From assembly GCA_964476245.1 (NCBI GenBank), contig CAYYYW010000001.1, forward strand, positions 26,808 to 90,807: DNA of 64,000 nucleotides. The letters are read 5' to 3'. Every line of letters begins with the position of its first letter. Positions within the stretch are counted from its first letter, which is position 1. Source of the stretch: an uncultured Gammaproteobacteria bacterium (lineage in GTDB: Bacteria > Patescibacteriota > Microgenomatia > UBA1406 > HO2-37-13b). The position numbers were made by a program, and so were the translations under genes. This document shows positions 30,592-63,120 of the stretch, piece after piece. The notes beneath the pieces are model-generated. The model ran no database searches, was not told the origin of the DNA, and saw nothing but the letters and a program-made list of their open reading frames with translations.

Positions 30592-30979
30592 TGTCATTCC
30601 GAGCGAAGCCTCGATTGAATCGGAGCGAAGTCGAGGAATCCCTTCTCTAATCTTCGCTCAGATCTTTCCATCCTGGATTTATTCTTCTAATAAGCCACTC
30701 TTTTTTTCTCTTCGCCAATTTTTCAGTTGTTTTTCTCGTACGATTGCGTCATTAATGCTCGAATATTGTTCAGAATAAACTAATTTTATGCAACTATATT
30801 TTTTGGAAAATCCATCGATTAAACCCTGTTTATGCTCATAAACTCGTCTTTGTAAATTATTTGTCACACCAAGATACAATGTTCCGCTTTTACTTGCCAT
30901 AAGATAGACATAATAGTTTTTTTTCATGAAAGGATTCCTCCACGCGTCCCGACATTCGTCGGGACTTGGTCGGAATGAC
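30592..30979. mobile_element. GIY-YIG gene enclosed by GTCATTCC...GGAATGAC inverted termini (candidate full-length member of the palindromic element family)
   Basis: Left end tGTCATTCCGAGCGAAGcctcgattgaatcggagcgaagTCGAGGAATCCC (30592..30642). Right end GGATTCCTCcacgcgtcccgacattcgtcgggacttggTCGGAATGAC (30932..30979). The unit exactly fills the gap between the stop codons of convergent genes (30591 and 30981). Confidence 0.55.
30679..30927 (-). CDS. GIY-YIG nuclease family protein (small, UPF0213-like)
   Basis: 82 aa with YYVYLMASKSGTLYLGVTNNLQRRVYEH...REKQLKNW, i.e. the GIY...YxG...R...E core. Confidence 0.8.
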   Translation of the reverse strand: MKKNYYVYLMASKSGTLYLGVTNNLQRRVYEHKQGLIDGFSKKYSCIKLVYSEQYSSINDAIVREKQLKNWRREKKSGLLEE

Positions 30980-55151: not shown

Positions 55152-56441
55152 ATGAAAAAAATTTTTCTTTTATTAAGCCTAACACTTTTTATTTTATCGT
55201 TTACTCATATTCTCTTTAATCTTCTCCAAATTTTACCAAAAAAGAACTTTATTGATTTTTTTGTTTACAACGGCGCGGTTGAGAAATTCCTCAATCAACA
55301 AAATCCTTATAACTTTCTCTACGGTCAGCCGCCCGATAAAATCCCCTTCAATTATCCTCCCAGCGCTCTTTTGGTTCTTTTACCATTAAAATTATTTCCC
55401 ATGAAAATTACCCAAATAATACTGGTTATATTATCATTTTTAGCTTTTTGGTCAACTTTTTGGGTAATTCTAAAGATGTCAAGAATCAAAATTTCTCTTC
55501 CTCATTTTTTAATTTTATTAGCCTTTTTAAATCAAACCTTTCCCGTTAAATTCACTTTAGTTTTGGGACAAATAAATTTAATTGTCTTGGGTTTGGCGTA
55601 TGGAGGACTGTATTTATATTTTAAATCATATAAAAAATTGATAGGTGGCGCGGGTGCCTGCCTGCCGGACAGGCAGGGAAGGGCTCCCGACGACGCGCAG
55701 TTTTTCACGAGCATCGGCGGGAGGGAAACCCGCGACAGAATCTATCAATTTTTTTCTATAGTGTTTTTCTCTCTCGCTTCTTCCCTTAAAATCTTTCCCC
55801 TTTTCACTCTCCCGCTCTTTATAATCCTTAAAGACTTTAAGTTTGTTTTTTCTGTGGTAGGAATCTTCCTCGCTCTAAATCTTTTGCCGTCGCTTAATTT
55901 ATTTAAACAATATTATTTTCAAATTGTTCCCAATTTAAATAACGCTGTAGGAATACCAAATTTCTACGACCAATCGCTTTTAGCGTTTTTATTAAGGCTG
56001 GGAGTTGATGTGTCGGTAGCAAAAATTGTTTTGCTCCTCTTTCTATCCACGGTCTTTGTCCTTGTTTTCTTTAGGTTCTATAGAAGCAAAAACAAGGCAA
56101 CCACGTCAAACGTGGCTGGAGCAATAAAACAATGTAACAATGTAACAATAAAGCTGTTTTCCCTCGTCTTTGCCCTCTTTTCCATCGGCGGACTTTTTTC
56201 CTGGCAGCATCATTTGGTTTTTGCTTATCCTCTCATTTTCATCGTCTATCTTAAAACTCTGGAACGCCAAAAAAATTTAAAGGCTAAACTGTTTTATAAT
56301 TTTCTTTTCCTGTTTGTTTGGTTGGTTTTTGTTTTTCATTTTAAAACTGAAACCTCACCGTATCTTTTAAATCCCCTAGTCGCCTCATACCAAACAATCA
56401 CCGTCTTATTTTTTATCGTTTATTCCCTCTTAAGAAGTTGA
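55152..56441 (+). CDS. Polytopic membrane protein, GT87/DUF2029-like glycosyltransferase (tentative)
   Basis: 429 aa with 10 or more hydrophobic segments, architecture typical of polyprenyl-phosphate-sugar dependent GT-C enzymes. Interrupted by element 55640..55746. Confidence 0.45.
   Translation: MKKIFLLLSLTLFILSFTHILFNLLQILPKKNFIDFFVYNGAVEKFLNQQNPYNFLYGQPPDKIPFNYPPSALLVLLPLKLFPMKITQIILVILSFLAFWSTFWVILKMSRIKISLPHFLILLAFLNQTFPVKFTLVLGQINLIVLGLAYGGLYLYFKSYKKLIGGAGACLPDRQGRAPDDAQFFTSIGGRETRDRIYQFFSIVFFSLASSLKIFPLFTLPLFIILKDFKFVFSVVGIFLALNLLPSLNLFKQYYFQIVPNLNNAVGIPNFYDQSLLAFLLRLGVDVSVAKIVLLLFLSTVFVLVFFRFYRSKNKATTSNVAGAIKQCNNVTIKLFSLVFALFSIGGLFSWQHHLVFAYPLIFIVYLKTLERQKNLKAKLFYNFLFLFVWLVFVFHFKTETSPYLLNPLVASYQTITVLFFIVYSLLRS
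55640..55746. repeat. Roughly 100-bp GC-rich palindromic element in frame in the GT-C-like gene
   Basis: GATAGgtggCGCGGGT...gaagggctcccgacgacgcgcagtt...ACCCGCGacagaatCTATC. Translated as IGGAGACLPDRQGRAPDDAQFFTSIGGRETRDRIYQ. Sister copy in glyA. Confidence 0.8.
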
Positions 56442-58851: not shown

Positions 58852-58930
58852 GCCCGCCACAGTCAAACGTGGCTGGGACGTCGAGTCAAACTCGACAGGC
58901 ACGTTTGACAGTGCCGTTTGACGTCCCGCC
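58852..58930. repeat. GC-rich multi-hairpin element with GTCAAAC/GTTTGAC loops in the leader of the RRM gene
   Basis: gcccgccacagtcaaacgtggctgggacgtcgagtcaaactcgacaggcacgtttgacagtgccgtttgacgtcccgcc. Sub-hairpins gtcgagTCAAACtcgac and ggcacGTTTGACagtgcc. Related palindromes at 56101..56115 and 54321..54337. Confidence 0.6.
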
Positions 58931-61710: not shown

Positions 61711-63120
61711 ATGAAAGATACAAAAATTTACAACCTAATCAAAAAGGAAGAAAAAAGGCAAAAGGAAGGAATTGAACTGATTCCTTCGGAGAATTATGCC
61801 TCGGCCAATGTGCGAAAAGTTTTATCTTCGGTTTTTGTCAATAAATATTCAGAAGGATATCCGGGAAAAAGATATTATGGTGGCAATGAAGTAGTTGATG
61901 AAATGGAACGATTGGCCCAAGAAAGGGTAAAAAAGTTATTCGGCGTTCCTTTTGCCAATGTCCAACCTTACTCTGGCTCACCGGCTAATTTAGCTGTCTA
62001 TCTTGCCACTTGTCAACCCGGCGATGTCATTATGGGCCAAGCCTTAACCGCCGGCGGTCATTTAACTCACGGACACAAGGTCTCGGCAACGGGGATATTT
62101 TATAAGAGTGTACAATATAGTTTGAAAAACATCGCGGTAGGTGGCAGGTTTAGAAGGGCTCCCGACAGCGCGCAGTTAAAACGAGCACTGACGGGAAGGA
62201 AAAACATGACAGAATCTACCGCGATCGCCAATGATCTTTTTGATTACGACGAAATTCTTCGATTGGCTAAAGAATATCGACCACGCCTCATCTGGGTTGG
62301 GGCCACCGCTTATCCTTTAAAATTCAACTATGAAAAATTTGCGAAAATCGCCGACGAAGTTGGCGCATACTTAGCCGCAGACATTGCTCACGTGGCCGGA
62401 TTGATTGCCGGCGGCGCTCATCCCTCCCCCGTTCCCCACGTCCACATTGTCACCACCACCACTCACAAAACCCTGCGGGGGCCTCGAGGAGCCTTGATTA
62501 TGGTAACAAAAAAAGGGTTAATAAAAGACCCGGAGCTCGCTGAAAAAATCAACAAAGCAGTCTTCCCGGGTCTTCAAGGAGGACCACATGATAATCAGAC
62601 GGCCGCCATAGCCATGGCTTTATATGAGGCGGCGCAACCCTCATTTAAACATTACGCTCAACAAATTGTTAAAAATGCTAAAGCGTTAGCTAAGGTTTTA
62701 ACCGAAGGCGAGTTATATCTCGTGGGCGGCGGCAGCGAAAACCATTTAATTTTAGTTGATCTCTCCTCTACTCACGGACCAGGAGCCGGTGTTTTTGCCC
62801 AAAAGGCTTTAGACTTTGTAGGATTAACCCTCAATAAAAACACGGTTCCCGGCGAACCATTTTCACCTTTTTATCCGTCTGGAATTAGACTCGGGACGCC
62901 GGCGGCCACCACCAGAGGCATGAAGGAAAAAGAAATGAAATTTATCGGAGAAACAATTCTTAAAGTTTTAAATCTGATCAAATGCTACCACCTACCCCCA
63001 AATAAGGATACTAGGAGGGAGTATATTAAGACGTTTGAAAAAAAGATGAAGATGAATGAACAAATCAAGAAATTGAGAAATGAAGTAAAGAAATTGGCGG
63101 TCAAATTCCCAATTCCCTGA
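61711..63120 (+). CDS. glyA: Serine hydroxymethyltransferase
   Basis: 469 aa with LIPSENYAS...YSEGYPGKRYYGG...TTTTHKTLRGPRG (PLP-binding Lys). Contains element 62131..62225 in a surface-loop position ahead of the conserved DYDE segment. Confidence 0.95.
   Translation: MKDTKIYNLIKKEEKRQKEGIELIPSENYASANVRKVLSSVFVNKYSEGYPGKRYYGGNEVVDEMERLAQERVKKLFGVPFANVQPYSGSPANLAVYLATCQPGDVIMGQALTAGGHLTHGHKVSATGIFYKSVQYSLKNIAVGGRFRRAPDSAQLKRALTGRKNMTESTAIANDLFDYDEILRLAKEYRPRLIWVGATAYPLKFNYEKFAKIADEVGAYLAADIAHVAGLIAGGAHPSPVPHVHIVTTTTHKTLRGPRGALIMVTKKGLIKDPELAEKINKAVFPGLQGGPHDNQTAAIAMALYEAAQPSFKHYAQQIVKNAKALAKVLTEGELYLVGGGSENHLILVDLSSTHGPGAGVFAQKALDFVGLTLNKNTVPGEPFSPFYPSGIRLGTPAATTRGMKEKEMKFIGETILKVLNLIKCYHLPPNKDTRREYIKTFEKKMKMNEQIKKLRNEVKKLAVKFPIP
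62131..62225. repeat. Roughly 95-bp GC-rich palindromic element in frame in glyA
   Basis: ATCGCGGTAGgtggcaggtttagaagggctcccgacagcgcgcagtt...gacagaatCTACCGCGAT, with perfect 10-bp inverted termini. Translated as IAVGGRFRRAPDSAQLKRALTGRKNMTESTAIA. Confidence 0.8.

Follow-up and report, generated by a model that had tools for sequence, protein, structure and literature searches.

The window, a stretch of 64,000 nucleotides corresponding to positions 26808-90807 of contig C1 in an assembly of 1.135 Mb (G000; 49 contigs, 35.5% GC), contains two genes that share a palindromic element. The gene at 55152..56441 (+) encodes a 429-aa membrane glycosyltransferase of the Pfam family GT87 (GT-C fold), and the gene at 61711..63120 (+) is glyA, encoding a serine hydroxymethyltransferase (SHMT) of 469 aa that matches Pfam SHMT, in agreement with an earlier note on this DNA, made from the sequence alone, which had described a GT-C-like membrane protein and an otherwise canonical SHMT. 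Copy 1 of the element is located at 55633..55753 (+), with its core at 55640-55746, and breaks the Pfam GT87 match into two stretches, while copy 2, at 62131..62225 (+), encodes residues ~141-173 of the SHMT. Upon re-reading, the positions and the shared blocks reported for both stretches were found to be correct. The two copies are 79% identical over 67 nt (blastn, E 2e-6 against the whole genome), and a covariance model of the element scores copy 1 at 57.9 bits (E 1e-11, the match spanning 55668-55746) and copy 2 at 96.1 bits (E 5e-22). Their GC content, 65% and 54%, respectively, compares with 35.5% genome-wide. Inverted termini had been proposed for both copies and are present in both, the stem of copy 1 being longer than first claimed: its full arms, AAAAATTGATAG / CTATCAATTTTT, extend over 55633-55753 and include 7 extra base pairs of outer stem, AAAAATT / AATTTTT, at 55633-55639 and 55747-55753. 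In copy 2 the outer stem is 10 bp long (ATCGCGGTAG / CTACCGCGAT). Folded as single-stranded DNA, copy 1 reaches -39.5 kcal/mol (z -7.65) and copy 2 a z of -5.5, and for each copy none of 200 shuffled sequences folded as well. The two copies had also been thought to be translated in the same frame, which holds for the 5' half (GG..RAPD.AQ) and fails for the 3' half, where they are read one base apart because the length of the central loop differs by one base. A peptide expected if the inserts are read through is GRFRRAPDSAQLK.

The element is not limited to these two genes, a limitation that, according to the earlier note, would have been refuting; five further full copies and one remnant were detected elsewhere in the genome by blastn and the covariance model, bringing the census to seven full copies plus the remnant and supporting the proposal of a GC-rich palindromic element of about 100 bp carried in frame by two unrelated genes. 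Besides the GT87 and glyA copies, both in sense orientation, sense copies are found in a P-type ATPase gene (C8:8535-8654), in a gene for an NAD-dependent epimerase (C2:5916-6030) and, in a different frame, between the two Mur-ligase domains of a further gene (C21:960-1142). An antisense copy at C10:12709-12795 provides the final ~30 codons of an NAD synthase. Five copies of this genome thus lie within genes and a sixth makes up the 3' end of nadE, and the remaining copy (C10:19345-19495) occupies an intergenic gap. The remnant, 26 nt in antisense orientation at C18:5360-5385, is located in lepA and adjoins a scaffold gap.

The element measures ~85-130 nt, with a conserved core running from RGGTGRC to GRCAGRAYC, and one of its strands forms an irregular hairpin with three helices (P1, P2 and P3), internal loops rich in purines and an apical hairpin that varies between copies. 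From the 5' end, the terminal helix P1 is followed by the junction GGTGRC, P2, the loop GGAAGGG and P3 (CTCCCGAC.. / ..GGCGGGAG); GCGCAG, the variable hairpin and CGAGCA come after these, and the structure closes through GGGAAA, the second arm of P2, GRCAGRAYC and, at the 3' end, the second arm of P1. In an alignment of 33 sequences, which was fitted to the model, 94% of the cells are paired, against 35-43% with slid partners, and 18 of the 25 pairs are altered on both sides, values that none of 500 shuffles attained; the same helices were recovered from single-sequence folds and from a plain MAFFT alignment. A position beside P2 also covaries (G.A 69, A.G 21, U-A 9), and one pair of P1 is G.U in 25 of the 33 sequences. 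When folded with DNA parameters, the strand displaying this structure, hereafter the + strand, exceeds its complement in stability in 114/114 copies (mean -21.7 vs -17.8 kcal/mol, a mean advantage of 3.9 kcal/mol), and with RNA parameters the two strands are approximately equal.

Other small hairpin repeats are able to nest inside the element. One of them, CCTGCCTGCCGGACAGGCAGG, is found in copy 1 at 55657..55677 (+), between helix P2 and the GGAAGGG loop, and an identical stretch of 30 nt carrying this nested hairpin occupies the same internal position in the copies of the GT87, P-type ATPase and epimerase genes and in that between the Mur-ligase domains. Since a derived variant is common to four different genes, we conclude that the element has been copied within the lineage. 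Hairpins related to CCTGCCTGCCGGACAGGCAGG stand alone at at least six other sites of the genome. A second small palindromic repeat (GGGACGTCAAACGGCACTGTCAAACGTGCC...) is nested in the Mur-ligase copy and in the intergenic copy. A stand-alone copy of this repeat was observed in the window at 58852-58927 (- strand; 92% identity over 76 nt), and more copies are present on C20, C9, C10 and C12, the last of these contigs carrying three in tandem.

In order to assess the spread of the family, a covariance model (R1) built from seven copies out of five genomes was used. Within the order of the source genome, to which Ca. Roizmanbacteria and Levybacteria also belong, matches were obtained in 57/151 genomes, at 1 to ~27 copies per genome, and 94/151 genomes gave none, so that the distribution is patchy; among 150 other Patescibacteria genomes, 4 have matches. 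Copies in related genomes number in the hundreds, and an exact-pattern scan of named genomes returned Ca. Roizmanbacteria, Levybacteria/Levyibacteriota, Microgenomates and 'Patescibacteria group'. A few matches labelled Vicinamibacterales, Gammaproteobacteria or Nanoarchaeia were not counted as spread beyond Patescibacteria, such labels being discounted because the five genomes checked (including Vicinamibacterales and Nanoarchaeia) are all of ~0.9-1.1 Mb. Likewise, a pattern match in Acetobacteraceae has no model match and is probably due to chance. A pattern scan of viral contigs gave no matches, a search of Rfam with both copies at loose thresholds gave a best E of 0.7 or worse, far below gathering scores, and no paper describing the element was found in the literature. 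Taken together, the data show that these structured hairpin repeats, carried in frame, form a real family, which has apparently not been described before.

In a census of frame and orientation across the family, which goes beyond the genome-wide one suggested in the earlier note, about half of the copies lie in open reading frames and keep the frame open: 54 of 115 matches, a set which includes a few duplicates, are found inside long open frames, 30 in sense and 24 in antisense orientation. A single shared frame does not extend to the family, in which both orientations and several frames occur, with one frame preferred per orientation (22/30 sense copies and 18/24 antisense copies). Most copies are open in several frames, and consequently stop codons alone provide no explanation for this preference. 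Some host genes recur across genomes, namely tgt, at two sites, dnaX and the transketolase gene. Concerning the SHMT, the insert had been placed in a variable loop, and this position is correct: it takes the place of a surface loop that has 3 residues in solved SHMTs, residues 140-174 of the query standing opposite three residues of the Thermus SHMT. This insert is absent from most SHMT relatives, and in the AlphaFold model residues 142-173 form the sole stretch with a pLDDT below 50 (mean pLDDT 85.8). Judging from the open frames, the copies within genes are probably translated through as extra loops, and removal of the insert from the mRNA appears unlikely. In a genome of a sister genus (G012; L176, G012:C15), a different palindrome of 99 nt (GTCATTGCGA...TCGCAATGAC) is found in the same SHMT loop, which suggests that this loop was struck independently by two repeat families. 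The G012 palindrome resembles the arms around a GIY-YIG gene located in the window at 30592-30979.

In three genomes the element occupies precisely one and the same junction in tgt, and in these copies P2 displays compensatory changes (CACGG/CCGTG, CACGA/TCGTG and CAGGAG/CTCCTG). The tgt elements are 64-73% identical, against 63-73% for the coding flanks, and hence diverge no faster than the latter. These same-site copies may reflect selection acting on the fold, conversion among copies or a single site having been struck more than once, and the pattern may mean that the element is more than junk.

Conservation is highest in the interior of the element and lowest at its termini. Direct repeats of at least 2 nt at the ends were found in 15/102 copies, which is at chance level (~12 expected), and no conserved nucleotides were found in the flanks. 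In G096, whose copies are the youngest and the most numerous, the cores are nearly identical, yet the outer stems are copy-specific and nevertheless perfectly complementary, with extensions that reach 10 bp beyond the P1 of the model. Over 102 copies, perfect pairing extends past the model P1 by a mean of 2.5 bp, compared with 0.39 in controls, and the stem extensions have a GC content of 39%, against 35% in the flanks and ~60% in the element. Given this copy-specific perfect pairing and flank-like GC content, the outer stem looks host-derived. No empty site identical enough to define an insertion footprint was found for glyA in metagenomes or for TsaD in relatives of G096; the nearest metagenome relatives of glyA are at most 80% identical and the boundaries of the insertion are therefore fuzzy, as they are for TsaD. 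In G096, elements were also observed at the tip of larger nested palindromes (L037-L056, e.g. L049 and L043) with outer arms such as CGAAGATACC...GGTATCGAGC and ATTCGCGAAGGACC...GGTCCGAGCGAAT, and the core of one copy is replaced by another composite, a mosaic organization reminiscent of BIMEs.

The orientation of the element follows replication. GC skew of the flanks, read on the + strand of the element, is negative at 88/105 unique loci (p 1e-12) and at 8/8 loci of the source genome, whose contigs are each consistent in their skew, in some with one sign and in some with the other. The direction of the genes is no explanation for the orientation, since only 59% of the genes of the source genome are on the G-rich strand and sense copies are about as frequent as antisense copies. 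The same was verified in three closed genomes (G080, G069 and G052) with dnaA taken as the origin: the + strand is on the lagging-strand side in 16/16 strong matches. In G080, with dnaA at 546 kb, the - strand carries the six copies found from 587 to 1073 kb, the + strand carries those at 153, 250 and 1215 kb, and one copy is near the predicted terminus; G069 (5/5) and G052 (2/2) obey the same rule, which is broken in the closed genomes by one weak match (29.9 bits). In G096, measured against its own weak GC skew, the outcome is 13 to 9, and copies on the same contig agree in 6/7 contigs, a result that does not choose between survival and strand-specific insertion. As the + strand folds better and lies on the lagging-strand side, the stabler of the two hairpin strands belongs to the leading-strand template, and the lagging-strand template, which is exposed, carries the weaker. 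Trinh and Sinden reportedly observed, in 1991, a preferential deletion of hairpins located on the lagging-strand template. The orientation rule fits a survival filter, in which hairpins on the lagging-strand template would be lost preferentially, and also strand-specific insertion.

Several candidate movers were considered. A Y1/HUH transposase was rejected in this role, as it is only weakly associated with the element and the Y1 gene of the source genome comes with hairpins of a different kind. PF01797 (Y1/HUH) is present in 100/151 genomes, comprising 42/57 with the element (74%) and 58/94 without it (62%). The IS200-like Y1/HUH gene of the source genome (214 aa; C14:26318-26965, in a unit spanning C14:26204-26991) contains the motifs HYH and YIHLNP and has a copy of the hairpin TTCCACCGCTTCGGTGGAA, not of the element, on each side, in a RAYT-like layout, and classical IS200 loci of the order contain no match to R1. 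Proteins of ~214 aa with a partial Y1 match were observed to be multi-copy across the order. GIY-YIG/Ssn genes were likewise rejected as partners for lack of adjacency in the source genome, where none of the eight GIY-YIG genes adjoins a copy of the element, being flanked by other hairpins or by tRNA genes; the Ssn-type gene of the window (82 aa, 30592-30979), for instance, lies between the inverted arms GTCATTCCGAGCGAAG... / ...TCGGAATGAC. The presence of such genes, small and multi-copy, is uninformative, as they are found in 150/151 genomes, and the Ssn motif CGTCATTCCCGCGMAVGCGGGAATCYRG is absent from the element. Clustering of the open reading frames around ~100 copies yielded only the repeatedly struck host genes (tgt, dnaX and transketolase) and no transposase, and no full-length parent element was seen.

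Based on these results, we hypothesize that the repeat is a non-autonomous selfish hairpin DNA element of the kind known from Rickettsia, translated through when located in genes and with its spread or survival tied to single-stranded DNA at the replication fork, a reading to which we assign a probability of about 0.6. Copies lie between and inside genes in either orientation, and those observed inside genes are located in loops and leave the frame open; only copies of this type would survive, being presumably translated as floppy extra loops, as in the Rickettsia palindromic elements (RPEs). Spreading or filtering would take place through the single-stranded DNA of the replication fork, and the outer terminal stem would be built from host sequence at each site rather than carried by the element. 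Weighing against this reading, neither a transposase nor a nuclease could be connected with the element, no sufficiently similar empty site was found, the tgt copies may point to more than junk, and the orientation count in G096 is 13 to 9. As to how the spread might happen, we advance with reserve a fold-back insertion, a mechanism that would be new: a hairpin copy in single-stranded form would be incorporated into the growing lagging strand, and its folded 3' end would copy a few bases of the neighbouring host flank in reverse before synthesis went back to the template. Such a route would account for the host-like, copy-specific and perfectly paired outer stem, for the missing direct target duplication and for the location of the folding strand on the lagging-strand side, and yet we regard it as unlikely.

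The strong covariation, the conserved unpaired nucleotides and the G.A/A.G pair could also be expected of a functional structured RNA, that is, a ribozyme, a small intron-like element cut from the mRNA or a mobile non-coding RNA gene, for which the in-frame appearance would be incidental; the same-site copies in tgt, which keep their helices through compensatory changes, and the ends, which P1 brings together, would also suit such a molecule. Nevertheless, within genes the antisense orientation is nearly as common as the sense one (24 vs 30), the frames are open throughout these copies, the orientation tracks replication and not transcription, Rfam gave no match even at loose thresholds, and it is only with DNA parameters that one strand always folds better, the two being about equal with RNA parameters, and accordingly we judge an RNA function to be very unlikely. 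The conservation of the core across the order and beyond, together with the compensatory changes at sites common to several genomes and the strict orientation relative to replication, may alternatively reflect a single-stranded DNA signal that is useful to the host or domesticated, such as a site for an Ssn-type GIY-YIG nuclease or a signal in replication, priming or recombination, kept by selection and not by its own spread. Small multi-copy GIY-YIG genes occur in 150/151 genomes, and Ssn nucleases cut hairpin repeats as single-stranded DNA (PMC11893778), in accordance with this alternative. A signal of this type is, however, not expected within essential genes nor to be missing from 94/151 genomes and to vary from 1 to ~27 copies in the others, and the element lacks the motif CGTCATTCCCGCGMAVGCGGGAATCYRG and flanks no GIY-YIG gene of the source genome, so that we consider it rather unlikely. 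Finally, being short, gene-less, multi-copy and bounded by inverted repeats, the element resembles an ordinary MITE, the deletion derivative of a DDE-type IS that keeps conserved terminal inverted repeats and leaves a direct target-site duplication; since direct repeats at its ends are at chance level, its variable termini and conserved interior are the reverse of those of a MITE, and no full-length parent was seen, this origin is hardly credible.

Compared with systems already described, the element, read as selfish hairpin DNA, works like the RPEs, hairpin-forming repeats of ~100-150 bp spread across a small genome, of which nearly half of the copies are in frame in unrelated housekeeping genes, read through and compatible with the fold of the protein (Ogata et al. 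2000, summarised in PMC10969869). Both are dispersed gene-less hairpin repeats of ~100-150 bp, a large share of their copies lies in open reading frames with the frame kept open, and in the SHMT the position of the insert is likewise compatible with the host protein fold. The present element differs in its host phylum, Patescibacteria, in a more elaborate three-helix fold with conserved internal loops that is supported by covariation, in outer stems that are copy-specific and host-like, and in its near-absolute orientation relative to replication, which was not found reported for RPEs in the literature examined. Given the host phylum, and as the comparison was drawn from the description of the RPEs, we regard it as working like an RPE and not as a member of RPE-1 to RPE-10.

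Transposition of IS200/IS605 elements is said, in work by Ton-Hoang et al. dated 2010, to proceed through single strands and to be coupled to replication. The element shares with this family, and with the gene-less PATEs, the lack of terminal inverted repeats of fixed sequence and of a target duplication and, with IS200/IS605, a strand-specific orientation relative to the replication fork. In contrast to IS200/IS605 and PATEs, no conserved target tetranucleotide is found beside its copies; moreover, unlike IS200/IS605, it consists of one long hairpin instead of separate left-end and right-end hairpins, and its better-folding strand is on the leading-strand template and not on the lagging-strand template. 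Some traits are also shared with the REP/REPIN sequences associated with RAYTs (Y1/HUH), hairpin repeats rich in GC that lack both classical ends and target duplications and are thought, in the case of REPINs, to be handled as single strands, REPs being extragenic (PMC3116915, PMC3337134, PMC3733652). The element is likewise a GC-rich hairpin repeat with neither classical ends nor a target duplication, in genomes where Y1 genes are common; nevertheless, it shows neither the doublet of inverted REPs nor a fixed tag (GTAG or CGTC), a different hairpin flanks the Y1 gene that was examined and Y1 tracks the element weakly (74% vs 62%), and half of its copies, unlike the extragenic REPs, lie within genes. 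A last comparison is with the SRM/NTS hairpin repeats of Ssn nucleases (Chenal et al. 2025, PMC11893778), which are also dispersed and to which, by analogy, the element would be similar in acting as single-stranded DNA; an Ssn-type GIY-YIG gene is present in the window, but the motif is different and the element flanks none of the eight GIY-YIG genes.

If the proposed reading is true, selfish DNA that is read through in essential genes would not be an oddity of Rickettsia and would recur in the ultra-small Patescibacteria, where enzymes, among them SHMT, TsaD, tgt, DnaX and transketolase, would gain loops from it. To what is known of RPEs the family would add a covariation-supported fold, outer stems that look host-derived and a strict orientation relative to replication (13 to 9 in G096, where the skew is weak). 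As its fold is well defined, its copies number in the hundreds and its strand rule is clean, it should be a good system for studying the movement or persistence of gene-less hairpin repeats at replication forks, and in closed genomes the orientation of the element may mark the direction of replication. Masking of the element during annotation should improve the gene models and protein alignments of these genomes. In lepA of the source genome (C18:5164-5263), the sequences bordering a scaffold gap of 100 N were observed to be duplicates of each other, next to the remnant of the element, a duplication that is probably an assembly artefact.
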